64,000 nt of DNA from a virus. The notes under the pieces are model-generated. The model worked only from the letters and a program-made list of their open reading frames with translations. It did no database searches and was not told the origin of the DNA. Made by a program: the position numbers and the translations under genes. Positions 2,721 through 24,836 of the stretch are shown one piece after another. The stretch spans positions 32,001 through 96,000 of the IMG/VR virus record IMGVR_UViG_3300045974_000166. One strand, 5' to 3'. Each line of letters opens with the position of its first letter. Positions within the stretch are counted from its first letter, which is position 1.

Positions 2721-2749
2721 ATTATAACACAATTAGAATTATGTGTAAA
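2721..2749 (-). promoter_or_regulatory. early sigma70-type promoter P1
   Basis: TTTACA-17 nt-TATAAT on the minus strand; upstream TAA (2750-2752) abuts the -35. Confidence 0.85.
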
Positions 2750-3040
2750 TTAAAGTAGTTTGATTACTTTACAAAGTAGTTCGTCGGCAAGTTTACTATC
2801 TACCCAAGCAATATAGCCGTCTTCATCAAGTTCACCTGGGATTATGTGAGCTTTTATCAGCGGCACATAAAGTTCACGTTCCCAACTAGAATTACCAAAC
2901 GGCCGTTTTCCAGAAAAGCCTTCTTTTTCTTGTACTAGAGTAGTAAGTAGAAGTTGGAAATAATGCCGGATTGTTTTTGCTCCGGCATCATTTTCTTCCA
3001 TTTCAAGATCAAGAACGGGTTGCTTAGTAAGCTTCGGCAT
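2750..3040 (-). CDS. hypothetical protein
   Basis: Start likely MPKLTKQ (3040) rather than 3154, which avoids a long overlap; contains FSGKRPFGNSSWE. Confidence 0.6.
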   Translation of the reverse strand: MPKLTKQPVLDLEMEENDAGAKTIRHYFQLLLTTLVQEKEGFSGKRPFGNSSWERELYVPLIKAHIIPGELDEDGYIAWVDSKLADELLCKVIKLL

Positions 3041-3254
3041 ATGAGTACCAGGTACCATCAGAATTTTGGCATGCAGACCAAGAGACTCTGCGGTTACCGC
3101 ATTCACATCGCCGAGATTCTCCATCCCAGCCGCCGCATTTAGATTTGTCTTCATCGAGATAATTGTTACAATTCATCCCATCAAACTCAATCAAGTAAGG
3201 ACCATGGTCCTTGGTTGCGTTCGAGAGTGCCTCAGCCCAGGTGGCGTAGCTCAT
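3024..3254 (-). CDS. hypothetical Cys-containing protein
   Basis: Start MSYATW (3254) overlaps the upstream stop (ATGA); GWDGESRRCECGNRRV. Confidence 0.6.
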   Translation of the reverse strand: MSYATWAEALSNATKDHGPYLIEFDGMNCNNYLDEDKSKCGGWDGESRRCECGNRRVSWSACQNSDGTWYSYAEAY

Positions 3255-3622
3255 TTGCGCGGCACAGCCATGACGATTCGGTAGCCCGTGTTGGTAGCAG
3301 TCTGCCAAAGTGGTTCTTGCACAACAGTCACTTGGCAATACTTGAGAGCAATCTGACCACCAGTCATTACTGCTTCATCGATTACCTTGGCGACCTTGGG
3401 ATCCAACACAGAGAATGCCCAGATGTTTCCGCCGCGGATTCCATTAGCATTGCCTGCAATCTTCTCGCCTTCCATGACGAGTTCGCCTTCCCAGGATTTA
3501 TTCACAAACCCCTTAGACGAGAACTTTTGAACGGATCCTACACGGACACCATCAGAGTAACATTCTGCCGTTGCTGCCAAAGCCGTTAAGGCCAGGGCAG
3601 CAACCATGATGATCTTTTTCAT
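3251..3622 (-). CDS. secreted/periplasmic hypothetical protein
   Basis: Signal peptide MKKIIMVAALALTALAATA; SD AAGGA. Confidence 0.7.
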   Translation of the reverse strand: MKKIIMVAALALTALAATAECYSDGVRVGSVQKFSSKGFVNKSWEGELVMEGEKIAGNANGIRGGNIWAFSVLDPKVAKVIDEAVMTGGQIALKYCQVTVVQEPLWQTATNTGYRIVMAVPRK

Positions 3623-3643
3623 GATTGCTTTTCCTTTTTAAGT

Positions 3644-4612
3644 TTAGACTGCCAAGGCCAGCATGTCGGCCAAGACTTCGTTTTTCACCTTTTCGGCACG
3701 GCCGAAGTGTGACTGCCAGAAGGCATGGGATTCATCACGTTTACGACCATTGCCGTGAGTGAACAGATCGGTTGCGGCATTCACAACACCCCAAGCAGTG
3801 CCCTTGGAGTACTGAGCACCATCACCGGATTTATACAGATTCATGAGGGTAGCAACTTCCTTGATACGGCCGGTGGGTTGATCTTCAGCCAACACATCCT
3901 TCATGTAGAATTTCTTCTCAAAGTACTTTTGGACGAAATTGTCGGCAACTTCGACTTCAGCCAATTTCTTGATCGAAGCGGCAAAGGTTTCCCAGGATTC
4001 GTCGATCAGACCCATGTCCATCTTGACCTGAGTAGCATCCCATTCGATGCGGTGAGATTTCTTCACAACACGTTTGGAGTTGTCGTTCAGGGCGACGGTC
4101 AGTGTGTTATTGCACACGGTACGAGTGGAGGTCAGCTTCGCCGTAGTAGCGAGGGTGCCGTCGATGGAAGTCACGAGGAGCAGGTAACCGTTCACGTGAT
4201 CTTTGGTCACGGCCTCGAACGACTTACCGATTTCAGCAGTAGCCCAGAAGCGTTTCCCACCGAAGAGCGACCCAGCGGCCGAGAGCTTCATGCCGTGCAG
4301 TTGAGTCAGATCACGGAAGAATTCCATCACTTCGGCAGGTTGGACGATCTTGTAATCCTTGCCGACGATCGACATGGGTTCCTTGGTATCCGAACGGAAT
4401 AGGACGCGTTTGCCGTCATAGCAGTGTTGACCGTCCATTGAGGTGAACTGGACGGCCGATTGGAAGACTTCCCAGGACAGACCGGCCTCAACAATCCAAT
4501 CTTCGATTGAAGCGCCAGGGGTGAGTTCCTGACCGAGACCGTGCCAGGCCTTGTCGCCAGCATATGCGAATTCGGCGGTGCCATTTTCGCGGATTGTAAT
4601 TGCATGAGCCAT
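3644..4612 (-). CDS. DUF932 family protein (phage/plasmid TIGR03299-like)
   Basis: AWHGLGQ, AGLSWEV, YKIVQP, AGSLFGGKRFWA and TRTVCNNTL motifs. Confidence 0.85.
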   Translation of the reverse strand: MAHAITIRENGTAEFAYAGDKAWHGLGQELTPGASIEDWIVEAGLSWEVFQSAVQFTSMDGQHCYDGKRVLFRSDTKEPMSIVGKDYKIVQPAEVMEFFRDLTQLHGMKLSAAGSLFGGKRFWATAEIGKSFEAVTKDHVNGYLLLVTSIDGTLATTAKLTSTRTVCNNTLTVALNDNSKRVVKKSHRIEWDATQVKMDMGLIDESWETFAASIKKLAEVEVADNFVQKYFEKKFYMKDVLAEDQPTGRIKEVATLMNLYKSGDGAQYSKGTAWGVVNAATDLFTHGNGRKRDESHAFWQSHFGRAEKVKNEVLADMLALAV

Positions 4613-4646
4613 GATTTTTCCTTTAAGGATTTGTTGAAGATGAGTT

Positions 4647-4675
4647 ATTATACCACAATAAGAATTATGTGTAAA
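4647..4675 (-). promoter_or_regulatory. early promoter P2
   Basis: TTTACA-17-TATAAT; upstream TAA at 4676-4678 abuts. Confidence 0.85.
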
Positions 4676-4852
4676 TTATTTCTTATTGACTAGATTCTTG
4701 GTGGCTTTGCGGTCACGTTTTTCCTGAGCCTTCTTGAGTCGTTCGAAGTCGGCTTCATTTGGTTCAGGTTTTGGCTCGGGCAACAGTACATCTGGAAATC
4801 CACCCATGAGACCAGTTGCTGTCATAATTCCAGCCATAAGTATTCCATTCAT
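4676..4852 (-). CDS. small hypothetical protein (58 aa, not in ORF track)
   Basis: Read by hand: MNGILMAGIMTATGLMGGFPDV...NLVNKK; ATGA-coupled to the upstream ORF. Confidence 0.5.
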   Translation of the reverse strand: MNGILMAGIMTATGLMGGFPDVLLPEPKPEPNEADFERLKKAQEKRDRKATKNLVNKK

Positions 4853-5070: not shown

Positions 5071-5079
5071 TATTTTACC

Positions 5080-5553: not shown

Positions 5554-5561
5554 TTTAATCC

Positions 5562-5893: not shown

Positions 5894-6080
5894 TTTGGGC
5901 TTCTTTCAAAGCAGCACGGGCAAGGCGTTTCATACGGTTGGTCGCAGAGACATCGGAAACATAAGTTTCGCCAACCCAGATAACGATAGGGAAGTTCTTC
6001 GAGGAAACATCGGTCACAACGGCGCGGACTTTAGTACCCAGGTTACGGCCTTCGATGGTTTCGTAGGTAAGTGTGATCAT
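5880..6080 (-). CDS. hypothetical protein
   Basis: 66 aa; SD AAAGGA after promoter P3. Confidence 0.65.
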   Translation of the reverse strand: MITLTYETIEGRNLGTKVRAVVTDVSSKNFPIVIWVGETYVSDVSATNRMKRLARAALKEAQNESV

Positions 6081-6082
6081 GA

Positions 6083-6119
6083 TTTTCCTTTGTGATTTGG
6101 AGAAGATGGTTTATTATAC
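6083..6119. repeat. 37-bp exact direct repeat, copy 1 (-10 box, leader and SD)
   Basis: ttttcctttgtgatttggagaagatggtttattatac, identical to 7359-7395. Confidence 0.9.
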
Positions 6120-6141
6120 ACCATCCATCATTATGTGTAAA
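6113..6141 (-). promoter_or_regulatory. early promoter P3
   Basis: TTTACA-17-TATAAT; the tRNA CCA end lies 5 nt upstream of the -35. Confidence 0.85.
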
Positions 6142-6146
6142 TTAAT

Positions 6147-6221
6147 TGGTGCAACCCCCGGGACTTGAACCCAGACCTTAAGAATTATGAGTTCTCGGCA
6201 CTACCATTATGCTAGAGTTGC
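6147..6221 (-). tRNA. tRNA with CAU anticodon (elongator Met or Ile2)
   Basis: 75-nt cloverleaf: acceptor GCAACTC/GGGTTGC, anticodon arm GAGAA-CTCATAA-TTCTT, T-loop TTCAAGT, encoded CCA. Confidence 0.92.
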
Positions 6222-6586: not shown

Positions 6587-6859
6587 TTATTCCTTAGCTT
6601 TGATAACAACACCAAAATGAGATGACCGGGCCAAAGATGCGCCACCATTGAATGCGGACCTGAAATTATAGTAATCTACGACATCGTATGATAGGCCGGT
6701 TGAATTCAGTCGTTCAGTCATGTGCAGCATAAAACTTTCGGCCGTGGTTCCGTGGGTGTAAAAATAACCGCGGCGAATGACGATCATTCCGTCTTTATTA
6801 CGAGAAACTTGGTCGGCATAGTGGCCGATTGCTTGCTTGACTTCCTTGACTGTGAGCAT
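6587..6859 (-). CDS. hypothetical protein
   Basis: Start MLTVKEV after SD AAAGGA, downstream of P4. Confidence 0.65.
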   Translation of the reverse strand: MLTVKEVKQAIGHYADQVSRNKDGMIVIRRGYFYTHGTTAESFMLHMTERLNSTGLSYDVVDYYNFRSAFNGGASLARSSHFGVVIKAKE

Positions 6860-6888
6860 GATTTTCCTTTGTGATTCGGTATGGATCA

Positions 6889-6917
6889 ATTATACTACAA
6901 CGAATATTATGTGTACA
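6889..6917 (-). promoter_or_regulatory. early promoter P4
   Basis: TGTACA-17-TATAAT; upstream TAA at 6918-6920 abuts. Confidence 0.8.
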
Positions 6918-7115
6918 TTAATCGAAGCTTTGGATTATCTTATTGCGCAACAGCACTTCCTTCAGCTGTTTGTCGATGAACCGACCGCAGAGCGTCTTGG
7001 CTTTTTCACAGCCGGGGTAACCGAAGGGAAGCAGCGAATAGATCTGCTTCAGCTGATCCAACGTTTTCTGGGCAGCAACTTGGGTTTCAATGAGGTCGTT
7101 CAGTTCTTTACACAT
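6918..7115 (-). CDS. hypothetical protein
   Basis: 65 aa; SD AAGGA. Confidence 0.6.
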   Translation of the reverse strand: MCKELNDLIETQVAAQKTLDQLKQIYSLLPFGYPGCEKAKTLCGRFIDKQLKEVLLRNKIIQSFD

Positions 7116-7124: not shown

Positions 7125-7355
7125 TTAGACGAATTGTACGTTCTTGCGGATCTTTTTGGACATCTTGGAGATGATGCCGAGCTGCACAGAGATGAGTTCG
7201 TCAAAGATCACCTTGGCGTCACGGGGAAGCGCAGAGTACACTTGATGGTACCGAGTGATGACACGGACGGCTTCGTCCTTCTTTTCATGGAATTTAACCT
7301 GGTCGGTGTCCACGAGGATATTCCGACCGTAGGCAAACATTGTGACTTTTTCCAT
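7125..7355 (-). CDS. hypothetical protein
   Basis: 76 aa; SD AAAGGA after P5. Confidence 0.65.
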   Translation of the reverse strand: MEKVTMFAYGRNILVDTDQVKFHEKKDEAVRVITRYHQVYSALPRDAKVIFDELISVQLGIISKMSKKIRKNVQFV

Positions 7356-7358
7356 GAT

Positions 7359-7395
7359 TTTTCCTTTGTGATTTGGAGAAGATGGTTTATTATAC
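7359..7395. repeat. 37-bp exact direct repeat, copy 2
   Basis: Identical to 6083-6119. Confidence 0.9.
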
Positions 7396-7417
7396 TACAC
7401 TCAGAATTATGTGTAAA
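7389..7417 (-). promoter_or_regulatory. early promoter P5
   Basis: TTTACA-17-TATAAT; upstream TAA at 7418-7420 abuts. Confidence 0.85.
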
Positions 7418-7912
7418 TTATTCCCAAGTCACGCCGGTAGCAACAACCGTACCCAGGATCTGGATCACAGCATATTTGGTGCCTGGCATATGTTTGGCAT
7501 AACTCTCGGCCTCATCTTGTGCAGCTTTCAGGGTTGCATATGTACCAACAACGGCCATGCCGTTATGAAGCTTCAAAACGCTGTAGCTCGGTTTCTTTTC
7601 CGTAGCTGGGGTAATACACTGCTCGGGCTGAGTAGACGCAGAATAGACCCGTGCTGGGGGAGACGAGCGATATGCCATATCCTGGCGTTCGGCCGCAGTA
7701 ATGAGTACATCAAAAACTTCACGGACGCGATCTTTACGAACGAACTTCAGCACTTTGTTGTTTTCACCCAGTGCTGCAATCTGTACCTTGGTGCGTAGCG
7801 GTAGGCGCCACTTGATGTCCTTTTCATTCGGGCATTTAGTAGACACAATGACATTACGACCTTCATCGTAGTAGAAGTCTTTGAGACGAACATCTGAGGA
7901 TTTAAACAACAT
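7418..7912 (-). CDS. hypothetical protein
   Basis: 164 aa; SD AAGGA. Confidence 0.7.
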   Translation of the reverse strand: MLFKSSDVRLKDFYYDEGRNVIVSTKCPNEKDIKWRLPLRTKVQIAALGENNKVLKFVRKDRVREVFDVLITAAERQDMAYRSSPPARVYSASTQPEQCITPATEKKPSYSVLKLHNGMAVVGTYATLKAAQDEAESYAKHMPGTKYAVIQILGTVVATGVTWE

Positions 7913-7929: not shown

Positions 7930-8154
7930 TTAAGCCATACAATCATAAGCATCGTGACCAAGAGAACGACCGTACTGGGCACAGTAAGCTTCCCAGACCA
8001 ACAGGTTATCAAACTTGACCGAGTTGTACTCGTCGACCCAGTCGAACATACGATCCGACGGGTCCTTGCCGTTATCCTTACTCCAGCAATGGCTGTACTT
8101 ATTCAGCATGCCAGAGATGTAGTTAAGACGTTTGATTTGGGTTTTCGTTTTCAT
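7930..8154 (-). CDS. hypothetical protein (probably leaderless mRNA)
   Basis: Start MKTKTQ lies 6 nt after the -10 hexamer of P6. Confidence 0.6.
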   Translation of the reverse strand: MKTKTQIKRLNYISGMLNKYSHCWSKDNGKDPSDRMFDWVDEYNSVKFDNLLVWEAYCAQYGRSLGHDAYDCMA

Positions 8155-8160
8155 AGGGTA

Positions 8161-8189
8161 ATTATACCACAATAGCAATTATGTGTAAA
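8161..8189 (-). promoter_or_regulatory. early promoter P6
   Basis: TTTACA-17-TATAAT; upstream TAA at 8190-8192 abuts. Confidence 0.85.
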
Positions 8190-8528
8190 TTAAAATGGAA
8201 TGTCATCATCCCAACAAATTGGGCGTTGAACTTCTTTGTATTGTGGTGCGACATAGTCTGGATTGTGAAAGTTGTTAAAGACTTCGTTATACGATCCAAA
8301 GTTAGTGAAGTCACAACGTAAGCGATCTTGATTGTCTGTCAGAATTTCTGTTATTCCCAGATCTGTGTAGTCACCGCTGGCCACGCCAAGAACGGTGACG
8401 TGGCCATTGTTGAATTCACCATCCCAACTACCATTGATGACGGTGAATTCAAAATTCTTTGGATCATAGTTATCATTCACCGTCACAAGCAGCTGAGGGT
8501 CTCCAGGTTTTCCTAACATGAGCCTCAT
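8190..8528 (-). CDS. hypothetical protein
   Basis: 112 aa immediately after nadV; start ambiguous (8528 or 8519). Confidence 0.6.
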   Translation of the reverse strand: MRLMLGKPGDPQLLVTVNDNYDPKNFEFTVINGSWDGEFNNGHVTVLGVASGDYTDLGITEILTDNQDRLRCDFTNFGSYNEVFNNFHNPDYVAPQYKEVQRPICWDDDIPF

Positions 8529-8529: not shown

Positions 8530-10005
8530 TTACTTCACCTTTACATCATTGAGCATTGTGAGCATTGAGTTAGCACGAACTTCGTCAAAGGTCTGGGTGA
8601 ATTTAACTTCACCATTTTCGAAGTATGTGTACATTGCATCTTTCCAATCGAAACCTTTATCGGTCCAATTTGCAGGCCGAATAACCGCAGTTTGATATTC
8701 AGTACCTTGGGGGGCACCATTTGTCCAGAGCTGCACACGACCTTTTTTAGATGCTTTGTTTGAAGCAGTAATTGGATCTTTGAACACATCCCGCCATTGT
8801 ACTTCAAGTTTGTCGTACTTAGCATCTGGGTAATCAACCCATTCACGAACACCAACAGCCGAGCATTTCATAGCAAACTCTTGAGTGTCACGATTACATT
8901 GTTGGAGCAGTCCACCACCCATACCAAATGCTATGTTGTCAGCAGACCAACCTGCTACATCAACAACGGTCCGAAGTATGCTAGACAAACTAAGAGAATC
9001 AATGCCATCGCCCCATATAACACGAACATTATTGAGTACTTTATAGCCTTTGGTGTTTTTAACAAATCCAAATCTGCTGCCAAGAATGTTGAACATTTTC
9101 GGAAGAACAACAGTAGGATCACCAGAGTCAGGACGAATAACAACAGTAGCACCACTTGCAATAACATCATCTTTTAACTCCGTTCCCCACATTTCGCAGG
9201 CTTTGTAAATGTCATACGAGTCAGACACCACAGCAAGAATTTTACCATTCCCACCGAACTGCTTGACCATATTCCGGTAAGCATCTACTTCGTTTGTACG
9301 ACCCCAACTTGTGATGGTACTGTGTTCTGCTGCTGGGATGCTAAATCCTGCCACATCACCCCCATAGGTATCCATGACATGCAGTACCCCAGAAATAGTA
9401 TCCGTACCCATAAAGTTGACAAGGTGCGCTGCTCCACCAATACCGGCAGAATCCAGGCTGCTGACACCGCGAGCACCAAAATCATGAAGCTTAAAAGATA
9501 TTGTTGAAGGATCACCGCTTTTCTCCAGGTAGTTTAGAATTTCTTGCTTTATGTGCCAAGAGGTAGTTCCGACAGTTGTAGGATACCAAATTGCTCTGAG
9601 GGCTGTAGTTTCAACCCAAGTTGTAAGCCAGAAACAGTTGGGGTCCGTGTTTTCAATTGTACACAGGACATTTCTTGTTGGGATGATAAGTCCCTCTTTA
9701 GCTGCTCGGATCCGTAGAGGAAGTTTTCCACCGTGGACATCGAGAATGTACTGCCATCCTGCCAAGTTGAAGGGCTCCCCGTGTAAGGTCCAAATACGAT
9801 TGGCGTAGTCGATTTGCTCTTGAGTAATAGGCTCAGCCAAATACTTTGCAAGAGCTTGAACTCCGAGGAATTCTGTTCGGTCATATTTGCCTCCGCGACT
9901 TTCGATGTAAGAGTAGACATATTCTGTTCCTGGTGGATATTGTTTCCACATTGAGACTTTGTACGAGTCGGTGTCTGTGATGATTGATTGAAGTTTGTTT
10001 GTCAT
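8530..10005 (-). CDS. nadV: nicotinamide phosphoribosyltransferase (Nampt)
   Basis: TDSYK, HDFGARG, SIPAAEHS, VIRPDSGDP, IWGDGID and FGMGGGLLQ motifs; SD TAAGGAG. Confidence 0.95.
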   Translation of the reverse strand: MTNKLQSIITDTDSYKVSMWKQYPPGTEYVYSYIESRGGKYDRTEFLGVQALAKYLAEPITQEQIDYANRIWTLHGEPFNLAGWQYILDVHGGKLPLRIRAAKEGLIIPTRNVLCTIENTDPNCFWLTTWVETTALRAIWYPTTVGTTSWHIKQEILNYLEKSGDPSTISFKLHDFGARGVSSLDSAGIGGAAHLVNFMGTDTISGVLHVMDTYGGDVAGFSIPAAEHSTITSWGRTNEVDAYRNMVKQFGGNGKILAVVSDSYDIYKACEMWGTELKDDVIASGATVVIRPDSGDPTVVLPKMFNILGSRFGFVKNTKGYKVLNNVRVIWGDGIDSLSLSSILRTVVDVAGWSADNIAFGMGGGLLQQCNRDTQEFAMKCSAVGVREWVDYPDAKYDKLEVQWRDVFKDPITASNKASKKGRVQLWTNGAPQGTEYQTAVIRPANWTDKGFDWKDAMYTYFENGEVKFTQTFDEVRANSMLTMLNDVKVK

Positions 10006-10029
10006 GGTAAGCTCCTTATAATGACAGGG

Positions 10030-11031: not shown

Positions 11032-11067
11032 TATAAACTCCTTATGTTGCAAATATATTTATTCAAT

Positions 11068-11511
11068 TTATTTTTGAAGATTGGTACGAAGATTCATTAA
11101 AATTCGGCCGAGCATGTTTTGCCCTTCACCTTCACAGACACCCCAGTAGGTATCATGCCAGACATTGGTTTCCTCAAGATGCGCATCACCAGTGTCAATT
11201 AGCTTTTGTGCCAGATCTTTGTCAGCGAATTTTGCCTTTAGAGCATTAGTCATAGCAATAAGTTTATATGTATCCCAATCAGGTCTGAGTACGGCAGTCT
11301 TACCTATCTTTTTAGCTTGGGCACCAGTTGAACTCATAAGGATCTTCAGACGATAATCGTAATCGTTTGATTTTTGATACATGAAAACATGTTCAGATGA
11401 CGTAAATGGAATAGAATTCCAAACACAAATGCATGGATGAAAATTAGAGAGCCAACTGTATTTACCACGAAAGCCCATGATAGGTGGAAATTCGGATTCA
11501 AAAAGATTCAT
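11068..11511 (-). CDS. NADAR family ADP-ribosyl hydrolase
   Basis: LSNFHP, SSEHVFMYQK, LRPDWD, LIDTGDAHLEE, DTYWG and GQNMLGRILM. Confidence 0.92.
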   Translation of the reverse strand: MNLFESEFPPIMGFRGKYSWLSNFHPCICVWNSIPFTSSEHVFMYQKSNDYDYRLKILMSSTGAQAKKIGKTAVLRPDWDTYKLIAMTNALKAKFADKDLAQKLIDTGDAHLEETNVWHDTYWGVCEGEGQNMLGRILMNLRTNLQK

Positions 11512-11738
11512 ACCAGCAATTCTTTCATGATCACAAATTTAGCTTCTGGGATCGACCGACAGAGGTCACCATTCACAGAGATATGCTTGAACGACTTAAT
11601 GAGCACTTTGAATTTACCCAGGGTAAGCGACCTTGAATCAGTAGATTTCTGAGACACCGGCACCTTACCTGAAGAGAAGTAAATTGTGCCCCAGAGTTCA
11701 TCCGAGACAGTTTTCATTTGGAAGTGTAGATTAGACAT
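11508..11738 (-). CDS. hypothetical protein (probably leaderless mRNA)
   Basis: ATG 6 nt after the -10 of P7; ATGA-coupled to NADAR. Confidence 0.65.
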   Translation of the reverse strand: MSNLHFQMKTVSDELWGTIYFSSGKVPVSQKSTDSRSLTLGKFKVLIKSFKHISVNGDLCRSIPEAKFVIMKELLV

Positions 11739-11744
11739 GAATCA

Positions 11745-11773
11745 ATTATACCACAATAAACTTTATATGTAAA
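11745..11773 (-). promoter_or_regulatory. early promoter P7
   Basis: TTTACA-17-TATAAT; macrodomain TAA at 11774-11776 abuts. Confidence 0.85.
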
Positions 11774-12226
11774 TTAAAACTTCACAAGAGTAACTTTGCC
11801 GCCGTAGAAAGAAAGTTCATGATCAAACTTGGAGATGATGTCAACAATTCTACTTTCATCTCCACCAGCAAGGCCACAGCCAATATACGGCATCCCAAAA
11901 TGTTTCTTGGGGAACATAAACTTCAACTTTTGAAGAATCAGCCAAAATGCTTCATACTCAAAACGATCTTTGCCGTCGGTACCATAATCAAACTGTGTAT
12001 ACGCATTCACAATAATGGGTTTGTAATGAACTAGAGTATACGTTCCAAGTTTATTACGATCGCCTTTAGATGTTTCTTGATCAATTGTCCAGGCACCCGG
12101 GTAATTTTCTTTTATCAGCTTAGCAACTCCAGAGCCCATTGTATTGAAACAATTACAACCGTGGACTATTACATCAAACTTACCACCCTTAGCAAATTTA
12201 ATTAGATCGCCTTGCAAGTATTCCAT
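11774..12226 (-). CDS. macrodomain (Appr-1-p processing / ADP-ribose hydrolase)
   Basis: QGDL, IVHGCNCFNTMGSGVA, IVNAYTQ and MPYIGCGLAGG motifs. Confidence 0.92.
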   Translation of the reverse strand: MEYLQGDLIKFAKGGKFDVIVHGCNCFNTMGSGVAKLIKENYPGAWTIDQETSKGDRNKLGTYTLVHYKPIIVNAYTQFDYGTDGKDRFEYEAFWLILQKLKFMFPKKHFGMPYIGCGLAGGDESRIVDIISKFDHELSFYGGKVTLVKF

Positions 12227-12759: not shown

Positions 12760-13077
12760 TTATTTGAATTCGACGAGGATGGCAGAGGAAGGGCGGATAT
12801 ACGTGTCGGCACGCCAATCGTAACTACCTTCACATTCAACGACTTCCTTGACGATGAAGGCCCGAGCGCATTTGCCGAACAGTTCAGCGGCAATATCGGA
12901 ACCCAATTTGCCGTCATTTTCAACAACGATACAGATCTTGGCACCAAGTAAACGGTCATAGTCAACAGTGCCGACATTACAACCGGCCTTCGAAACATAC
13001 TTCCGTACGACTTCCATTGTCTTTACGATTTGGTTGGCAACATCCAACGGTTCCAACTGTTTGACGATTTTACCCAT
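12760..13077 (-). CDS. hypothetical protein
   Basis: Start MGKIVK after SD AAAGGA, downstream of P8. Confidence 0.65.
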   Translation of the reverse strand: MGKIVKQLEPLDVANQIVKTMEVVRKYVSKAGCNVGTVDYDRLLGAKICIVVENDGKLGSDIAAELFGKCARAFIVKEVVECEGSYDWRADTYIRPSSAILVEFK

Positions 13078-13105
13078 GACTACCATCCTTTGTTTAAGAT
13101 GGTTT

Positions 13106-13134
13106 ATTATACTACAATTAGTATTATGTGTAAA
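13106..13134 (-). promoter_or_regulatory. early promoter P8
   Basis: TTTACA-17-TATAAT; gp52 TAA at 13135-13137 abuts. Confidence 0.85.
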
Positions 13135-14451
13135 TTAAAGAACGCTTAGATAACGCTCCATTGGATTTGTTTTGGTCAGTACAGTGTGTTCTATTGTACA
13201 CTGTCTAATCTTTTCCTCTAGCGATTCTACAGCATCGGTTGTGCATGAGTATAGAGGAATGTTGATAAAGCTCTTGCCGTGTTCGGCTATGGTCACTTTG
13301 GTCCGAATGACTTCAAGCAGTTGTTCTTTGTTCAGTTGACGGAAGTCAATCTTACGATCAACAACCATCTTGATGAACTTTGCCTTGTCGGTCATGAGAC
13401 TGATTTGAGCAAGTAGTTCAAACTTTTCGTATGCAATCTTTTCTTCGAACTTTTCCAACCGATGGTCACAGAAGTATGCAAGCAGATCAGCTGCAGAGTC
13501 AAACAGTTTCAGCTTACCATCTGTACCTAGAGTGGTGATGTTCTCTGTGTGCGACTTACGAAGTTTGAAGAACTTAATCGGGTCGGTATCAATCTTGTCA
13601 CGAGCAATAGCCGTAACTTTCACATCGAAGCAGAAACCTTCCTCTGAGCAATTGTCTTCGTAGTCCTTAATCTTTTCGGCATCAAGTAGATCATTAAGAA
13701 ACTCTACATACTTGGCACGGTCGTAACCAACTGGTAGTTCGGAGATTTTGTAAGTGAACTTACCCACATATTCAACAATACCTTCTGTATACCATGTAGC
13801 AGTATTCTCTGTGTCCTGTGTCACGGTTCCGCGGAAGTGTGGGAATGTGGGTGCAATTGCTTCCTGAGCTTTCAAGAACTTCTTGGGGTCCTTGAGATAC
13901 TTCTTGACAGCAACTGTGAGGTCCTTGATTGAACGAGGGAGAATGTTGCACGCGAAACCTACGGCAATACCTTGAGTACCATTCACTAACACCCATGGGA
14001 TAGTCGGCAAGTAATAAGCAGGCTCTGGATTCTCTGGGTCCGGAGATTTAGAAGTAACCTCTGTGTCAATAAAGTACTTTTTGAACTCTGGGCTCAAGGT
14101 GCAGAAAATGTAGCGAGAACCGGCAGCCTCTTGTACGAGACGTGAGCCAAAGTTGCCATGACCCGTGAAGATGGGACAGTTATTGTTCCAATCGGCCGTC
14201 AGCGTCACCACAGCACCCATGGCGGATTCTTCGCCGTGGTGATAGTTGTACTTGGCCAAACCACCACCCAGTTCTGCAACCTTGACCTTCTTATTTGAAT
14301 GCTCAGTAAGCATAGAATAGATCAACTTACGTGCAGCAGGTTTCACACCATCTATAGCGGATGGGATGGCACGATTTTCAACCGTATACATCGAATAGGC
14401 TTTGAAGCCCGAATCGATTTCATTTGAGATTGAGGATTCAATAATTTTCAT
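13135..14451 (-). CDS. gp52: DNA topoisomerase II medium subunit (GyrA/ParC-like)
   Basis: RAIPSAIDGVKPAARK, YHHGE and GNFGS...AAGSRY (catalytic Tyr); ATGA overlap with gp39. Confidence 0.95.
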   Translation of the reverse strand: MKIIESSISNEIDSGFKAYSMYTVENRAIPSAIDGVKPAARKLIYSMLTEHSNKKVKVAELGGGLAKYNYHHGEESAMGAVVTLTADWNNNCPIFTGHGNFGSRLVQEAAGSRYIFCTLSPEFKKYFIDTEVTSKSPDPENPEPAYYLPTIPWVLVNGTQGIAVGFACNILPRSIKDLTVAVKKYLKDPKKFLKAQEAIAPTFPHFRGTVTQDTENTATWYTEGIVEYVGKFTYKISELPVGYDRAKYVEFLNDLLDAEKIKDYEDNCSEEGFCFDVKVTAIARDKIDTDPIKFFKLRKSHTENITTLGTDGKLKLFDSAADLLAYFCDHRLEKFEEKIAYEKFELLAQISLMTDKAKFIKMVVDRKIDFRQLNKEQLLEVIRTKVTIAEHGKSFINIPLYSCTTDAVESLEEKIRQCTIEHTVLTKTNPMERYLSVL

Positions 14452-16271
14452 GCGAGCATCCAATTTTTGCGGCCGTCGGCTGAATCACCAAATGCCATTT
14501 CCAATTTTTCAAAATCTGCAGCAGTGGCATTCACTTTGATGAATCGCGGGTTTTGCAGACATTGTTTGTAGACTTCCTTGGGCATAGAGCCCAAACCTTT
14601 AAAATAATCCACTGTATAACCTCTAACATTAGCAGCTTCATATTCGTCCTTTGAATAGAATGATTTCAAATCCTTACCCTTGGTACAATAGTACAAAGGT
14701 GCAGTACAACGATTGATGCGGCCTTCAGTAAACAACTCAGGCCAGTTCGAAAATAGATTCATGAGCAGAGCAAAGATGTGATCACCATCGGTATCAGAGT
14801 CGGTAAAGATAGCAATCTTACCATAATTAAGATCTGTAGCAGGTTTACCAAATGATAGACCAATGATAGAAAGTAACTCAGAGATTTCTTTGTTCTTGAT
14901 AATGTCGACCGGTTTCATACCGCGGACATTCATCACTTTACCCTTTAGAGGATAAGCTCCATCGGTCTTGGGATTCCGCACAGAGATATGGCAGCCGACG
15001 GCAGAGAGACCTTCTACGATATATAGAATTCTTTTCTCGGGATCAGAATCAGTTGCAGCAATATGATTCACCACACGGATTTTGGCCGTAGATTTTTGTT
15101 TCTTGGCAAGTTCACGAGCCTCGGCCTGTTCCTTTTTGAACAGTATAGCTTGAATCATTGGGTCAAGAATAGCCGGAGTATTTAGAATCTGCTTCGAAAT
15201 TTTATCGAAATCAATTCCACCCAAATGTGTAGCAACTTCTGAGGCAGTATTGGTGATACGTTCCTTCGTTTGTGAATCAAATTTCATATTCACAAAGCCG
15301 CGAAGAATGGACACAAAAGTCAAATGTTGCTTGATCTGATTTGGCAGCACATCAATTTTGTGCTTTTTCCGAATGTGTTCCTTCAGAGTAACTACGATCT
15401 GATCAAGTACATAGTTTACATGTGAGCCGCCGTTCTTAATCCACAGTCCGTTAACATATGAATGAAGCCGAAACTCTTCTTGTTCGCCAGAAGGACCAAA
15501 AATTAGAACATTCTTTTCGTCTTGTGAAATTACAAATTCCGTGCAATACTTTGAAGCATATTCCTTGGCATTCTTGATCTTGATCTTTTCAGAATTGAAT
15601 GTGAATGTAATCGAAGGATAGCATGCTGCCAAATTTTCAATACGGTCCTTGATGAAATTAATGTGATCGTCTGAAATCACAAGGATACCAAACGCAGATA
15701 GGTCTGGTACAAATGATACCTTAGTAAATTGTTTGGTTGATGCTTTTACGTTAATTGACTTTACCTTGGCATGATCAGCTGTGACCATTTTGAGGTAATT
15801 CTTACCGTCGGAAGTTTCACCAATAAATTCAGATGAAAATACAGCAGTAGCAAAAGAACCGACACCGTTGGCACCAATGGTTTCACGGTCGTCTGAGAAG
15901 TTAGAACCGGCACGAGCTCTAGTCCATGCTAGCACAGGTTGGTAATTTTCACCGTGCTTTACTACAGGGATACCACGGCCGTTATCCTCAACTGTAATTC
16001 GCCATGTGTCATTCTCAAGACCATTTTCTTGTTTGACAAAGTCGATATGAATCTTATTGGCAAATTTAAAATCGGTCCGAATGGCTTCATCAATTGAGTT
16101 ATCAATGATCTCAGAGATGATCTTGAGCAGCCCAGGAATTACTTTGAGTGTTTGATGCTCACCGAAGAACATACCAGATACTTCTTCGGTTGCAACTGAA
16201 CCAATGTACATTGCTGGCCGAATACGCATATGCTGCGCATCGGTCAGTTCTTTAAATTCTTCTTTTTTCAT
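14448..16271 (-). CDS. gp39: DNA topoisomerase II large subunit (fused gp39+gp60, GyrB-like)
   Basis: EIIDNSIDE, DNGRGIP, GANGVGS, VEGLSA, PLKGK, TDSDTDGDHI and YFKGLGS. Confidence 0.95.
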   Translation of the reverse strand: MKKEEFKELTDAQHMRIRPAMYIGSVATEEVSGMFFGEHQTLKVIPGLLKIISEIIDNSIDEAIRTDFKFANKIHIDFVKQENGLENDTWRITVEDNGRGIPVVKHGENYQPVLAWTRARAGSNFSDDRETIGANGVGSFATAVFSSEFIGETSDGKNYLKMVTADHAKVKSINVKASTKQFTKVSFVPDLSAFGILVISDDHINFIKDRIENLAACYPSITFTFNSEKIKIKNAKEYASKYCTEFVISQDEKNVLIFGPSGEQEEFRLHSYVNGLWIKNGGSHVNYVLDQIVVTLKEHIRKKHKIDVLPNQIKQHLTFVSILRGFVNMKFDSQTKERITNTASEVATHLGGIDFDKISKQILNTPAILDPMIQAILFKKEQAEARELAKKQKSTAKIRVVNHIAATDSDPEKRILYIVEGLSAVGCHISVRNPKTDGAYPLKGKVMNVRGMKPVDIIKNKEISELLSIIGLSFGKPATDLNYGKIAIFTDSDTDGDHIFALLMNLFSNWPELFTEGRINRCTAPLYYCTKGKDLKSFYSKDEYEAANVRGYTVDYFKGLGSMPKEVYKQCLQNPRFIKVNATAADFEKLEMAFGDSADGRKNWMLA

Positions 16272-16277
16272 TTAACA

Positions 16278-16306
16278 ATTATACCATACAAAAGATTAAA
16301 TGTAAA
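16278..16306 (-). promoter_or_regulatory. early promoter P9 (leaderless topoisomerase mRNA)
   Basis: TTTACA-17-TATAAT; ATG 6 nt after the -10; upstream TAA at 16307-16309 abuts. Confidence 0.85.
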
Positions 16307-16393
16307 TTAATCTGTTAAAAAGTAATGCGCGACATAATCTACCGAAAGTAATACAAGTAGTGCCGCGGCAAGAAATACTAAAAAGTTGATCAT
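16307..16393 (-). CDS. small membrane peptide (28 aa, not in ORF track)
   Basis: MINFLVFLAAALLVLLSVDYVAHYFLTD; ATGA-coupled to the RNA ligase stop. Confidence 0.5.
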   Translation of the reverse strand: MINFLVFLAAALLVLLSVDYVAHYFLTD

Positions 16394-17522: not shown

Positions 17523-17777
17523 TTAATACCCAGAATTCATTATTTCGGTAAACACTTTGTAATCAATACAGACTCCATCATGGGTCTGTAAATATTCCAT
17601 ATTTGATCCACAATTCCCGGTGCCCGGGGTGACCATTTTTGAATTCACAACGAAGGGCCGTACCACATTGGAAAACGCGGTACACTTATTGTAATTGATC
17701 GTTGCGACAAACATGACGGAAAGAAATTCATCAAGCACTTTGACCTGGAATGAATTAGAAGATGTAAGATTGATCAT
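17523..17777 (-). CDS. hypothetical protein (probably leaderless mRNA)
   Basis: Start MINLTS 6 nt after the -10 of P10. Confidence 0.6.
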   Translation of the reverse strand: MINLTSSNSFQVKVLDEFLSVMFVATINYNKCTAFSNVVRPFVVNSKMVTPGTGNCGSNMEYLQTHDGVCIDYKVFTEIMNSGY

Positions 17778-17783
17778 GTGGTA

Positions 17784-17812
17784 ATTATACCACACGAGCA
17801 ATTATGTGTACA
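17784..17812 (-). promoter_or_regulatory. early promoter P10
   Basis: TGTACA-17-TATAAT; upstream TAA at 17813-17815 abuts. Confidence 0.8.
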
Positions 17813-18118
17813 TTAATGTACGGCACCAAAGCAGTGCCAAGTTTCGTGTCCTAGAATTTCAAGTGGGAATTTGTCATCAAATGAAGTTGGCTCAGCCATG
17901 TAGATTTCACAGATGTTGCTGTTTGGTTTTGACCGAGCACACCCATTGAATTCAGCATTTGGTAATCCAAGTTGGTGGCAGGTTTCACCAACTTCTTGCT
18001 TCTTTAACCAGTGCATTTCAATAGTCGCCGTATTCCACTTAGAAGAAGTAGTTGGTTGTGGTACAGTCGAACAACCTACTAATGCGGCAACAAGTGCCGC
18101 AGCCAGAATAGTTTTCAT
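17813..18118 (-). CDS. lipoprotein
   Basis: Signal peptide with lipobox LVGC; LGHETWH resembles an HExxH motif. Confidence 0.75.
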   Translation of the reverse strand: MKTILAAALVAALVGCSTVPQPTTSSKWNTATIEMHWLKKQEVGETCHQLGLPNAEFNGCARSKPNSNICEIYMAEPTSFDDKFPLEILGHETWHCFGAVH

Positions 18119-18198
18119 TTGGTGAAAAGTTCAGACACTAGAACAACTACAACCATAGTAGCTACAGAGAGAATGAGGGCTGTGAAGATAAGTTCCAT
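18115..18198 (-). CDS. small membrane peptide (27 aa, not in ORF track)
   Basis: MELIFTALILSVATMVVVVLVSELFTK after SD AAAGGA; ATGA-coupled to the lipoprotein. Confidence 0.55.
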   Translation of the reverse strand: MELIFTALILSVATMVVVVLVSELFTK

Positions 18199-18229
18199 GA
18201 TTTTTCCTTTGAGTTTAAGAAGATGGTTT

Positions 18230-18258
18230 ATTATACCACACTAGCAATTATGTGTAAA
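18230..18258 (-). promoter_or_regulatory. early promoter P11
   Basis: TTTACA-17-TATAAT; upstream TAA at 18259-18261 abuts. Confidence 0.85.
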
Positions 18259-18483
18259 TTACTCGTTCACCTGAATAATATGGTTTGACACACCAAGATA
18301 AGTTATCGTTTTCCCGGCAAATGCTGCTTGTTGTGCTAATCCAGCACGAGCAGATGTACCATTAAGAGCAATAACTGTGACATTCCATGGATCACTAAAC
18401 CCATCTATTTTCACAGCGTAGTGAAAAGCCTTAGGTTGGATTTGGCCATTTGACGGAGGCAAGTCCATTGGTTCGTTCGACAT
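18259..18483 (-). CDS. hypothetical protein
   Basis: Start MSNEPMD after SD AAAGGA. Confidence 0.55.
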   Translation of the reverse strand: MSNEPMDLPPSNGQIQPKAFHYAVKIDGFSDPWNVTVIALNGTSARAGLAQQAAFAGKTITYLGVSNHIIQVNE

Positions 18484-18682
18484 AAAGTTTTCCTTTTTGG
18501 CCGCAGGCGGCAAACCATTTAATCTTTCGTTCATCAACAGCCGATGAACCTTTGCTCTTAACCGAAGTTAGAGCCCATTCGTCTTTGCAATTTACCTTGG
18601 GGTGATGGCAACGAAGATTCCATTCAGAGTTTATTTCTGGTTCAGACCAGGCACAGTTACGACAAAATTTTGGAAATTTCAT
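18431..18682 (-). CDS. Cys-rich hypothetical protein
   Basis: CRNC...CHHP...C; ATGA-coupled to the upstream gene. Confidence 0.55.
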   Translation of the reverse strand: MKFPKFCRNCAWSEPEINSEWNLRCHHPKVNCKDEWALTSVKSKGSSAVDERKIKWFAACGQKGKLYVERTNGLASVKWPNPT

Positions 18683-19080
18683 TCTAAATATTCCTTAGGT
18701 GGACGATCGTCACCCTCGGTGAATGTCTTTGAGTACAACGTGAGCATTCTCAAATTGCACATAGCATGTGCCAAATGTGGCAGTCCTGATTCTTCATCGT
18801 TTTCTTCGCCAGCTTGCCAACGTGCAAGATGTCTAAGAGCACATTCATATGGAATAGACCAGGACATACCCTTGGCCCAATTCCAAGACTTATATTTCTT
18901 TTCTCCATATTCCCAGACGCGGGCCTCGTCATATAGAGTAACCATTGGGATCAATGAAAGTTTTGGCTTCCCATTGTTGTATCGAGCACCAGTACCTTTG
19001 GCATCAGAATCAATATTGCCAACGCCCTCAGTTGTAGTAAGAGGATGAAATGTTAACATTTCGTGTGTATCTTCCATCAT
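18679..19080 (-). CDS. dATP/dGTP diphosphohydrolase-like protein (DUF5664)
   Basis: GKPKLSLIP, EYGEKKY, NWAKG, ALRHL and ESGLPHLAHAMCNL. Confidence 0.85.
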   Translation of the reverse strand: MMEDTHEMLTFHPLTTTEGVGNIDSDAKGTGARYNNGKPKLSLIPMVTLYDEARVWEYGEKKYKSWNWAKGMSWSIPYECALRHLARWQAGEENDEESGLPHLAHAMCNLRMLTLYSKTFTEGDDRPPKEYLE

Positions 19081-21235: not shown

Positions 21236-22164
21236 AAGAAATCTCCTATTTTAGAATACAACACATTCATTTTATGGTTCACAAAGAAATTCATCAATTT
21301 CATTTTATCAACTTTGTGACCCTTCTGTTCATTATAACACTCAATTGTATTGGTGTAAATTATTTCTGGTGTATGTTCGTAAGACACAAGCATTTCATTC
21401 CGAGAATAGTTTCGACGTTCTTCTTCGGTGGCACAGGCATCAATAGGATTCTTGGCAGCATAGAATGTTGCCAAATACTTCTCGGAGATCGGTGGCGCAC
21501 GTTTCTTATCGGTCAGTGTGAACCAATCGTCTGAACATTTGATACTGGGGACACCGTCTCCCGCGTCACCTCGCACGATTTTCTCTATGAGAGCATCTTT
21601 TGGCTTGCCTTCTGGCTTCACCAATTTCTTTGTCAGAGGACTCCACTGCTTCACATTCTTATATCGATGGAGTTGAAAGTGATCCTTATCAGAAGAAACA
21701 ATAAGAATTTGATCGGCTTCAATGTCACCAAAAATATTTTCTTCTTGATCTTCTCGGTTCAAGTCCTTATACTTACACAGAGCACCAATAATATCGTCTG
21801 CTTCTGCTTTTTCGGTAGCAAGAACATTGTAAGGAAAATAGTCGCGAAGTGCTTGTTGAATGTACGCCGAAGTCTCGAACACAAATGTCCAGTCAATTCC
21901 GGAAGTATCGGTTTCGCGCTTTTGTTTGCGGGCCCATTTGTAATATGGGAAAGCATCCTTGCGCCAGGACGGTGAGTCAAATGCAATCACCACCTCAGAA
22001 CCGTATTTGCTTTTGTGCATTACTTGTTGAGCACGGATGGTATTTAGAACCATGTGCATCATCATATCACGAGATTCATCCGATGGATTTTGAGCACAAG
22101 ACTTTGCAGCTGCATCCAAAAAGATTGGTGCTAGATACACCTGAGAAAAGTCAATTAAAAGCAT
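21232..22164 (-). CDS. rnh: RNase H / 5'-3' exonuclease (T4 Rnh, FEN family)
   Basis: LLIDFSQ, IAFDSPSWRK, YKWAR, EADDIIG, SSDKDHFQL and GDAGDGVPSI. Confidence 0.93.
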   Translation of the reverse strand: MLLIDFSQVYLAPIFLDAAAKSCAQNPSDESRDMMMHMVLNTIRAQQVMHKSKYGSEVVIAFDSPSWRKDAFPYYKWARKQKRETDTSGIDWTFVFETSAYIQQALRDYFPYNVLATEKAEADDIIGALCKYKDLNREDQEENIFGDIEADQILIVSSDKDHFQLHRYKNVKQWSPLTKKLVKPEGKPKDALIEKIVRGDAGDGVPSIKCSDDWFTLTDKKRAPPISEKYLATFYAAKNPIDACATEEERRNYSRNEMLVSYEHTPEIIYTNTIECYNEQKGHKVDKMKLMNFFVNHKMNVLYSKIGDFF

Positions 22165-22166
22165 CG

Positions 22167-22403: not shown

Positions 22404-22876
22404 ATGTTTTTCACATAGGATTTGGCAACAGGCCGAGTCTGACCCAGAGTTGCAACGGCCCAGTCAACGACTTCATTCTTGTCTTGACCGGCAGCTTTGG
22501 CTTCGGCAATTTTTTGACGAATGAGTGATGCATTGGAAACTTTTCCACCGCGGTTTACAACCTTGACCTTTTTCTTTTCTGTGGTAATGTCCACTTGATT
22601 ACCAGAAGAATTCAGGAAAGCCGTCGAAACTTCTTCGAGCTGCACATTCTTATAGAAGACATTGGTGCCGATGTTAATCGATCCATTCGATAGTCCCGGG
22701 CCACCACATGACTTAGTAAGATTCAAAGAAATAACTTCAATGAACGATCCAAAACGTGCCATACATTTATCACGGGCATCATCTTCTGTCAGGGCCTCCA
22801 TGAAAACCGTATTCAGTTCGGCGACATCCTGCTCGGCAGGATCAGAAAAATAGGTAATTACATAGCGATTCATCAA
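22391..22876 (-). CDS. hypothetical protein
   Basis: 161-aa ORF with a basic helical C-terminus. Confidence 0.65.
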   Translation of the reverse strand: MMNRYVITYFSDPAEQDVAELNTVFMEALTEDDARDKCMARFGSFIEVISLNLTKSCGGPGLSNGSINIGTNVFYKNVQLEEVSTAFLNSSGNQVDITTEKKKVKVVNRGGKVSNASLIRQKIAEAKAAGQDKNEVVDWAVATLGQTRPVAKSYVKNIWAE

Positions 22877-23053
22877 TTAAACTCCAACGGCTTCAACAGC
22901 TTCAACACAAGAAAACGAAACTTCATAAGTCTTAATTTCGTCATCAACAAACACAACCTCACGGTCATAGTCGAATCCAACAATCTTGGCAATGAAGAAC
23001 TTGGTCAGTTCTTGATCGTTGAACACGTTTACAAAATTTCCGATTTTAAACAT
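22877..23053 (-). CDS. small hypothetical protein (58 aa, not in ORF track)
   Basis: MFKIGNFVNVF...AVGV, first ORF after P12. Confidence 0.55.
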   Translation of the reverse strand: MFKIGNFVNVFNDQELTKFFIAKIVGFDYDREVVFVDDEIKTYEVSFSCVEAVEAVGV

Positions 23054-23085
23054 TTTGAGCTTTCTGTTTAGTTAGTGATGTGTCA

Positions 23086-23114
23086 ATTATACTACACTTA
23101 GCAATATGTGTAAA
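23086..23114 (-). promoter_or_regulatory. early promoter P12
   Basis: TTTACA-17-TATAAT; gp46 TAA at 23115-23117 abuts. Confidence 0.85.
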
Positions 23115-24836
23115 TTATTTTGAGAGGTCCTTAATAAGACTGAATCCGGATTCTTTGTACATGAGCAAATTCCCATCAAACACTTCTGCCAACTGATCTT
23201 TGGATTTGTGTGAAATGATAAAGATGTTGGATGTTTTGAATTCTTCTAACTCGTCAATGAGCGCTAGGAAATTGTCAATACCCTTCTGATCTAGACATTC
23301 CAAGATTTCGTCGAGGAATAGAATGTTGCAGTCGAACGAGTTCCTGATCTTAGATAGTTGACGGAACGTAAGCAATAGAGCTGTATCAATACGAGTCTTT
23401 TCACCGGCAGAGAATGAACCGTATGTGAAATCATCTCGGTGCCGTGACTTGATGATTTCGTTGAACTCAGAATCAAGATTGAACGAGATAAAGAAGTCAA
23501 GTTTCTCTAAGTAACCATTGATCAAACCATTGATGATTGGAATGTACTGATCTACAATTTTGGTTTTAATACCCGAATCCTTGAACAACTCAATCATGAG
23601 GTTGTTGTAATCTTGTTCGGCATTCATCTTAGACTGTTTGTCCTTTAATACTAGCGCTTCCTGTGCAGTTTGTTTTAGTTCAGCCTTAAGGTCGGCTAGT
23701 TCTTCTGATTGAGCATAATCAGCTAGTTCAGTCTCAAGTTCACCAATATCTTTATTCAAACGAGTAACCGTGCCATTGTCGGCAAAATTGCTTGAGTTTG
23801 CATCTGAGATGATTTCATTGATAGAACCAATTTCAGCCATAAGACTTTCTTGATCATGAAGTTTGGCAACGAACTCATCTTTTTTACTAGAGAGTTCTTG
23901 CATCTTTTCCATTGAAGGGGAAACAATAGTAAGTTTGGCCTTTTCATCTAACAGTGAGGCACAAACAGGGCAAGAATCTTCATGTTTCACAGAATCAATC
24001 TTTTCTAGGTGCTTGGCAATTGCATCATCAAAACTTTTGATCCGATCTACTGTACTTTGATGTTCTTCTAATTTCTTCTTAACCTGTTTGTATACAGTAT
24101 TCTTCTCTAGAATTGTTGCAGTCTTTTCTTTGATTCGCACTTCAAGTGCTACTTTTTCTTCTTGCAGAGATTCAAGTTTTGTTTTAAGTGCAGAGACTGA
24201 ATCTCCTTGAATAGATTGAAGGCGGTCAATATGTGCTTTCTGCAATTTTGCTTTAGTAAAGCAATTCTTTAATTCAAGATCAATGAGTTTGATTTCTTCT
24301 TTGTACTTGGAAATTTTAGACTTAAGAATCTGATTCATGAACGAGAACACTTTAATATCAAGGATCTCTTCAATGAATGCACGACGGTCTTGAGTTCTGA
24401 GTGTCATAAATGGCTTATAGTTCTCAACCGATAGTACAGATGTCTGTAGGAACGTCTTGATATTAGTACCAATAATGTTCAGTTCCAAATATTCTTGGAA
24501 ATCATTAGAGATTGTTTGATCTAGTGCTACACCATTTTCAAAGATCTCAAAGATGTTTGGCTTGATACCTCGGCGTACTAGATATGCTTTACCATGAGAT
24601 TCAAACTCAATCTCTACTACTGTACCCTTTTGATTTACAGAGTTCACAATCTGTGGTCTATTGATCTGTTTAATAGTTTGATTGAATAAACCAAAAGTAA
24701 TCAGATTCGCAATTGTAGACTTGGCAGAACCGTTAAAACCTTGGATAACAGTACGAGAATATTTTCGCAGATCAACTTCTAGAAATGCATTACCGATTGA
24801 GAGGAAGTTCTTTCCTCGCACTTTGCTTATAATCAT
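23115..24836 (-). CDS. gp46: recombination endonuclease ATPase subunit (Rad50/SbcC-like)
   Basis: KNFLSIGN, Walker A GFNGSAKST, CPVC hook, FSAGE signature and LFLDE. Confidence 0.95.
   Translation of the reverse strand: MIISKVRGKNFLSIGNAFLEVDLRKYSRTVIQGFNGSAKSTIANLITFGLFNQTIKQINRPQIVNSVNQKGTVVEIEFESHGKAYLVRRGIKPNIFEIFENGVALDQTISNDFQEYLELNIIGTNIKTFLQTSVLSVENYKPFMTLRTQDRRAFIEEILDIKVFSFMNQILKSKISKYKEEIKLIDLELKNCFTKAKLQKAHIDRLQSIQGDSVSALKTKLESLQEEKVALEVRIKEKTATILEKNTVYKQVKKKLEEHQSTVDRIKSFDDAIAKHLEKIDSVKHEDSCPVCASLLDEKAKLTIVSPSMEKMQELSSKKDEFVAKLHDQESLMAEIGSINEIISDANSSNFADNGTVTRLNKDIGELETELADYAQSEELADLKAELKQTAQEALVLKDKQSKMNAEQDYNNLMIELFKDSGIKTKIVDQYIPIINGLINGYLEKLDFFISFNLDSEFNEIIKSRHRDDFTYGSFSAGEKTRIDTALLLTFRQLSKIRNSFDCNILFLDEILECLDQKGIDNFLALIDELEEFKTSNIFIISHKSKDQLAEVFDGNLLMYKESGFSLIKDLSK

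Follow-up and report, generated by a model that had tools for sequence, protein, structure and literature searches.

A repeated stop-promoter-start cassette marks junctions of gene gain and loss in an uncultured T4-type phage and is probably a PeSL variant without the stem-loop

Introduction

Promoter-early stem-loops (PeSLs) are repeated sequences described in the T4-type phages RB49/phi1, T4/PST and KVP40/nt-1 (Arbiol et al. 2010, PMC2839356; Comeau et al. 2014, PMC4122927). Each begins at the stop codon of an upstream gene, which lies in AT-rich sequence, continues with a promoter and a stem-loop, and ends with a Shine-Dalgarno sequence and an ATG. Recombination between PeSLs produces insertions and deletions (indels) as well as mini-circles (PMC2839356; PMC4122927). 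Here we analyse a similar repeated element, a cassette that begins with a TAA stop codon and carries a predicted early promoter, in an uncultured T4-type phage represented by a single virus contig (IMG/VR record IMGVR_UViG_3300045974_000166; 192,097 bp, 40.7% G+C, rated 100% complete). The window, by which we mean the whole 64,000-nucleotide stretch analysed, corresponds to bases 32001-96000 of this contig, and the array of elements described earlier lies at window positions 2721-23117. An earlier note on this DNA had described twelve minus-strand elements of the same geometry and regarded them as PeSL-type shuffling junctions of an integron-like cassette system, with genome compaction as the alternative.

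The cassette resembles PeSLs in its sigma-70-like early promoter, its span from stop to start and its clustering among small accessory genes. In addition, indels in relatives are bounded by two copies, although this link is not exclusive; chimeric and degraded copies occur, one of which, in the relative L041, has lost its -35 box and matches the "half PeSL" of PMC4122927; and no dedicated recombinase is involved. The two systems differ in that 11 of 13 window copies have neither stem-loop nor terminator, no AT-rich tract precedes the element, whose upstream neighbour is abutting coding sequence, and a fixed TAA is fused to the -35 box as part of the repeat. Moreover, the leader is near-identical at unrelated loci, and about a quarter of the copies have no leader at all, with an ATG 6 nt after the -10 box. 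In the literature searched we came across no account of the fixed TAA or of a leaderless subclass, nor of leaderless early messages for any T4-type phage.

The early promoters of T4 itself provide a second comparison. They are characterised by GTTTAC at -36 to -31, an A-rich UP region at -40 to -44 and a GT-rich stretch before -12 (PMC1524935). The cassettes share the TTTAC-type -35 box, the 17-nt spacing, the GT-rich sequence just before TATAAT and the position ahead of early and tRNA genes. They differ in having A rather than G at -36, in an additional conserved CATAWT right after the -35 box, and in the lack of a UP-like A-tract, because coding sequence extends to -39.

Results

The TAA triplet as part of the repeated unit

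A search of the window for the exact pattern TAA-T[TG]TACA-N17-TATAAT gave 13 matches, all on the minus strand, where 100 shuffles gave 0.00 expected. Twelve are the elements reported before, and the additional one, at 21331-21362, falls within the RNase H gene and has a spacer without CATAAT. For 11 of the twelve, the TAA had been proposed to be the in-frame stop of the upstream gene, and all 11 positions do end minus-strand open reading frames (ORFs), of 134, 58, 65, 164, 112, 150, 442 (gp52), 28, 101, 92 and 573 (gp46) amino acids (aa); the only doubtful gene among them is the 28-aa ORF ending at 16307. The twelfth TAA, at 6144, stands 2 nt past a tRNA-Met (6147-6221), again as described.

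The genome-wide scan that had been suggested as a check was run with the triplet before the -35 box left free. It returned 31 core copies in the 192-kb genome, in a minus-strand arm (25.8-55.1 kb) and a plus-strand arm (127-164 kb); every copy is oriented with its genes, and the two arms are opposite to each other. The triplet is TAA in 28 of the 31 copies and AAA in three, and two of these three have a TAA stop 1 nt upstream. Across the 31 copies information content is about 0 bits through position -2 and then 1.3-1.8 bits at the TAA. Conservation of the element starts exactly at the TAA, and upstream of it lies coding sequence.

The TAA ends an ORF of at least 28 aa in 20 of 28 cases, as against 13.6% of the sense-strand TAAs in both arms (p = 5e-12), which answers the proposed test of stop abutment against a null model. 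The remaining eight TAAs end no ORF, and at least four of these come after tRNA, terminator or RNA-gene sequence. Among the ORFs that end inside an element, 21 of 22 use frame 0 (manual count; p = 1e-9); the element has stops in the other two frames too, at +11 and +28. Genes elsewhere stop with TAA in 57.5%, TGA in 32% and TAG in 10% of cases, and no TGA or TAG stop abuts a cassette among the 31 copies. Taken together, these observations support the view that the TAA is part of the repeated unit and not merely each gene's own stop.

Why is the triplet retained? It might be kept mainly through contact with RNA polymerase (host or phage-modified) at -38 to -36, with gene ends selected to fuse to it and recombination incidental, a reading that we consider unlikely but the strongest of the competitors. 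It would account for a TAA conserved where it has no coding job; T4 early promoters are conserved out to -36, the position of the last A of the TAA (PMC1524935), and the spacer is conserved well past what sigma-70 needs. However, in L006, a more distant relative with 58% gp39 identity, a different early promoter is repeated, CTG-TGTACA-17 nt-TATAAT; here CTG is kept before the -35 box and forms no stop codon, so no general polymerase contact demands TAA. Furthermore, the promoter embedded in the RNase H gene is kept in position in six relatives, and its triplet in relatives is TAA, AAA or ATA, and a polymerase contact would not predict the strong frame-0 bias.

Compaction alone would mean that ordinary early promoters are pressed against gene ends, that TAA stands there just because it is the most frequent stop, and that gene flux does not involve the elements. 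This explanation was examined with a control. The T4-type late box TATAAATA was dropped for this purpose with only 2 usable sites, and late-type boxes of the form ATTAAATA were taken instead: 25 have a downstream ORF, 18 of these also with a nearby upstream ORF. In only 3 of the 18 does the upstream ORF stop at the TAA of the box itself, compared with 20 of 28 cassettes (Fisher p = 7e-4); other upstream stops are often close, at variable offsets. In L006, stops fall at -3 to -24, +10 and +28 relative to its promoters. The genome is indeed about 90% coding (by a crude ORF call in which only ORFs of at least 60 aa were kept), stops lie within a few nucleotides of late-type boxes as well and, for two non-core promoters, at -2 and -4, and core genes also end at elements. 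Nevertheless, abutment at the cassettes is fixed at offset 0, unlike that of the late boxes and L006; the TAA is retained in all eight copies where nothing is stopped; the stops used by 42% of other genes, TGA and TAG, are never abutted; and relatives carry indels bounded by two copies and a chimeric copy, as described below. The data therefore support the conclusion that compaction alone does not yield fixed abutment, and we regard this explanation as improbable, somewhat more so than polymerase contact.

Leaders and start codons

Downstream of the TAA, the promoter part consists of TTTACA or TGTACA, 17 nt and TATAAT, with conserved CATAWT and TGTRG in the spacer, and is predicted from this near-consensus sequence to act as a sigma-70 early promoter. 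The repeat is longer than earlier described: it extends beyond the promoter as far as the next ATG, which is reached either after a conserved leader or 6 nt past TATAAT. In about 20 of the 31 copies, a leader of 19-34 nt follows TATAAT, opening with AAACCATCTTCT and closing with an AAGGA ribosome-binding site and the start codon, which is ATG except for GTG in two. Eight copies have neither leader nor ribosome-binding site; all of them start with ATG, 6 nt past TATAAT in seven and 5 nt in one. Four of the eight lie in the window (listed below), including one on the essential gp39. The remaining three copies have no downstream ORF of at least 25 aa, and two of these precede RNA genes.

The same two spacings recur in relatives, where the distance from the -10 box to the start codon in 51 distinct cassettes is either 6 nt (five cassettes) or 19-39 nt, and none falls at 7-18 nt. 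The 6-nt class is best read, from this spacing, as giving leaderless mRNAs predicted to start at their own ATG. Such predicted messages are unusual for a T4-type phage.

The leader itself, of about 33 nt, is near-identical at unrelated loci (window 7353-7388 and 6078-6112; genome 26504 and 164102; L007 19019 and 20267), and also between genomes that diverge by 10-30% in coding DNA. Such likeness suggests a role beyond ribosome binding, for instance as the target of a regulator or RNase, or else homogenisation between copies.

Elements in the window

The 13 elements are as follows, all on the minus strand.

2689..2752, minus: cassette; TAA (2750-2752) is the stop of a 134-aa ORF; core 2721-2752; 29-nt conserved leader; ATG 2691.
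4610..4678, minus: cassette; TAA is the stop of a 58-aa ORF; core 4647-4678; 34-nt leader; ATG 4612 of a 322-aa DUF932 protein.
6078..6144, minus: cassette 2 nt past tRNA-Met (6147-6221); TAA ends nothing; core 6113-6144; 32-nt leader; ATG 6080.
6857..6920, minus: cassette with TGTACA -35 box; TAA is the stop of a 65-aa ORF; 29-nt leader; ATG 6859.
7353..7420, minus: cassette; TAA is the stop of a 164-aa ORF; 33-nt leader; ATG 7355.
8152..8192, minus: leaderless-type cassette; TAA is the stop of a 112-aa ORF; ATG 8154, 6 nt after TATAAT.
11736..11776, minus: leaderless-type cassette; TAA is the stop of a 150-aa ORF; ATG 11738, 6 nt after TATAAT.
13075..13137, minus: cassette; TAA is the native stop of gp52 (442 aa, topoisomerase subunit).
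16269..16309, minus: leaderless-type cassette on ATG 16271 of gp39 (607 aa); TAA ends the doubtful 28-aa hydrophobic ORF.
17775..17815, minus: leaderless-type cassette with TGTACA -35 box; TAA is the stop of a 101-aa ORF; ATG 17777.
18196..18261, minus: cassette; TAA is the stop of a 92-aa ORF; 31-nt leader; ATG 18198 of a 27-aa hydrophobic ORF.
21331..21362, minus: embedded promoter, not a cassette; same hexamer geometry, within the RNase H coding sequence.
23051..23117, minus: cassette; TAA is the native stop of gp46 (573 aa); 32-nt leader; ATG 23053.

Promoter and leader of the 6857..6920 cassette nearly match a copy on the other genome arm. The cassette at 7353..7420 and its orthologous copy in L007 have an identical 32-nt core and equal leaders across the printed 33 nt. 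The 101-aa ORF that ends at 17775..17815 is present in no relative. As for the embedded promoter in the RNase H gene, an in-frame ATG lies 27 nt downstream, close to the gene end, and the promoter may serve downstream genes or an internal start. Units between elements are not single-gene cassettes: they comprise 1-5 genes, the exception being a run of about 13 genes after 23117 with the internal promoter in the RNase H gene.

The earlier remark that no intervening terminator hairpins were seen agrees with 11 of the 13 sites, which fold no better than shuffled sequences (z -1.5 to +1.7). The copies at 13137 (z -3.3) and 17815 (z -4.3) have significant hairpins upstream of the element. Both hairpins (13139-13159 and 17816-17838) are G+C-rich and lie in the terminal part of the upstream gene, and the array has no other stem-loops of PeSL type. 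A terminator scan showed no excess at elements. Pairing of ACACA with TGTGT in the spacer was considered as a terminator and rejected, being weak (4-5 A/T-rich pairs) and giving no energy signal.

Gene gain and loss in relatives

GenBank phages gave no megablast match to the region, and the best protein matches among them are only about 43% identical (gp39), so cultured relatives were unusable for comparison. The relatives considered here are uncultured contigs found by searches with gp39, gp52 and the cassette pattern, and they share the same cassette family. One metagenome scan returned no relative closer than L007, and it yielded a 91-99% identical population suitable for fine mapping.

In comparison with the closest contig (L007 plus L017, 80-92% nucleotide identity), eight of 12 indel events touch a cassette. 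Cassettes account for 4.1% of positions and, across five relatives, for 13 of 46 distinct homology breakpoints (p = 3e-8). The expectation that breakpoints in relatives fall at the elements is thus borne out in part, as many other indels are at cassette-free junctions.

Individual events illustrate how genes come and go between copies. After gp52, a gene of 110-155 aa has two flanking cassettes in L007, L003, L005 and L001; in the window this gene is missing and one copy (13106-13137) is left. At the 23086-23117 cassette of the window, L002 has an additional cassette and a 66-aa gene. In L041, a gene is inserted after a cassette and followed by the second, degraded copy without a -35 box. Another case involves L035, in which about 0.9 kb separates two cassettes downstream of a tRNA; at this place L003, about 91% identical, carries just one cassette, which is chimeric. 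The spacer of this cassette is that of the first L035 copy and its leader that of the second, which places the crossover in the 15 nt shared by both around the -10 box. Between L003 and L035, homology also opens exactly at the TAA, and the genes upstream are unrelated. These findings support the view that the elements are PeSL-like junctions where relatives gain, lose and replace genes, as the earlier note had supposed.

Comparison of junctions with and without a cassette is also informative. The 11736..11776 cassette is missing in L005 and L007, where the flanking genes overlap; gene 150 and gene 76 overlap in L005 and have a leaderless cassette between them in the window. The same two genes overlap stop on start when the cassette is absent, so the cassette acts as a precise stand-in for a stop/start junction of zero length. 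In L004, which lacks a cassette at this point, gp46 has its last residue unchanged. The same holds for gp52 in L030; there its TAA forms a TAATG overlap with the ATG of the following gene, a homologue of the cassette-flanked gene of L007. Core gp46 and gp52 therefore end at the element at their native stops, and abutment is no marker of captured genes, contrary to the proposal that captured genes end at the element.

Another difference was found in L017 (3657-4558), where about 900 nt stand between tRNA-Met and the cassette related to window 6140-6152. This insert has an ORF on the reverse strand, which might encode a homing endonuclease, and repeats the final 8 nt that precede the TAA. With its reverse-strand ORF and duplicated tRNA end, it was not taken as a cassette event and was counted as adjacent only.

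Finally, site-specific capture as in integrons, with the element as attC, would fit genes whose 3' ends are bounded exactly by a repeated recombination site and arrays of relatives that differ by whole gene-plus-element units, but is refuted as a mechanism and can hardly be upheld, since the genome has no match to tyrosine (PF00589, the family that would include the integrase IntI) or serine (PF00239, with resolvases) recombinases, the window copies have no attC-like conserved fold or hairpin, every unit has its own promoter whereas integron cassettes lack one and share a single promoter, units mostly comprise several genes and in some cases essential ones, core genes abut the element too, and the crossover within the shared 15-nt stretch is what homologous rather than site-specific exchange predicts. 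The analogy is functional only and fails on every defining feature that could be tested.

Discussion

The cassette is probably a stop-to-start linker that recombines homologously, a variant of PeSL cassettes without the stem-loop. Read 5' to 3', it would provide the TAA stop of the upstream gene, a sigma-70 early promoter, and the next ATG, placed either behind a leader with ribosome-binding site or 6 nt past the -10 box; in the latter case the transcript would begin at its own start codon. The 31 copies, directly repeated within each arm, would supply homologous stretches of 32-65 bp, and the phage's own recombination proteins, UvsX (a UvsX/RecA-like gene is present) and gp46/gp47, which are encoded in the genome, would cross over inside copies. 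Such crossover would remove, add or swap genes between copies while reading frames and expression signals stay intact. A cassette could also be inserted as such, for example by microhomology at TAA and ATG, or be lost precisely.

This linker reading is built on what was observed directly, namely the anatomy of the element, its statistics, the indels of relatives and the chimeric cassette. Several points weigh against it. Four of the 12 indel events relative to L007 and L017 touch no cassette, and in a 97-99% identical contig pair two small genes differ at a cassette-free junction. Under a fairer gene-junction null in the closest relative, 8 of 16 junction breakpoints are at cassettes, which make up 12 of 47 junctions (p = 0.03, manual classification), and the excess of breakpoints over ordinary gene junctions is therefore modest. 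Recombination between copies would keep the TAA abutment without accounting for its origin, and with the few relatives available insertion and deletion are not decidable for any event. Promoter activity, leaderless starts, the recombination enzymes, mini-circles and the origin of exact abutment are what we infer from sequence.

If the homologous linker is as proposed, one short module joins translation stop, promoter, translation start and crossover point in natural uncultured T4-like populations. It extends the PeSL idea to terminator-free cassettes with a stop codon built into the repeat and predicted leaderless early messages. It also offers an annotation rule for this lineage, in which gene ends, gene starts and likely indel sites could be read from the motif, and an example of a compact natural expression linker.

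A bolder possibility, put forward tentatively and as doubtful, is that the cassette is a recombinase-free shuffling device, a universal stop-promoter-start linker aimed at overlapping TAATG-type junctions and spreading with its TAA, perhaps via mini-circles. If so, any gene between two copies would be terminated, transcribed and translated without further adaptation, and the leaderless form would not even need a ribosome-binding site.

Gene content of the region

The products of the cassette region include the recombination nuclease gp46 and gp47, RNase H, RNA ligase 1, the topoisomerase subunits gp39 and gp52, DNA ligase, an NAD salvage pair, a NADAR protein and the DUF932 protein. The NAD block (window 8530-11511) encodes a NAMPT-like phosphoribosyltransferase of 491 aa, a fusion of NMN adenylyltransferase and Nudix of 340 aa, and the NADAR-domain protein of 147 aa; in L007, other DNA takes the place of the NADAR gene. 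The protein of 133 aa encoded at 18679-19080 has a match to PF18909 (E 7e-28), the N-terminal domain of dATP/dGTP diphosphohydrolase, a similarity that could link it to nucleotide-pool or DNA-modification chemistry. Tiny hydrophobic ORFs adjoin several cassettes, of 28 aa (16307-16392) and 27 aa (18115-18198) in the window and a third after the cassette at genome position 30352, and these may be small membrane peptides or chance frames.

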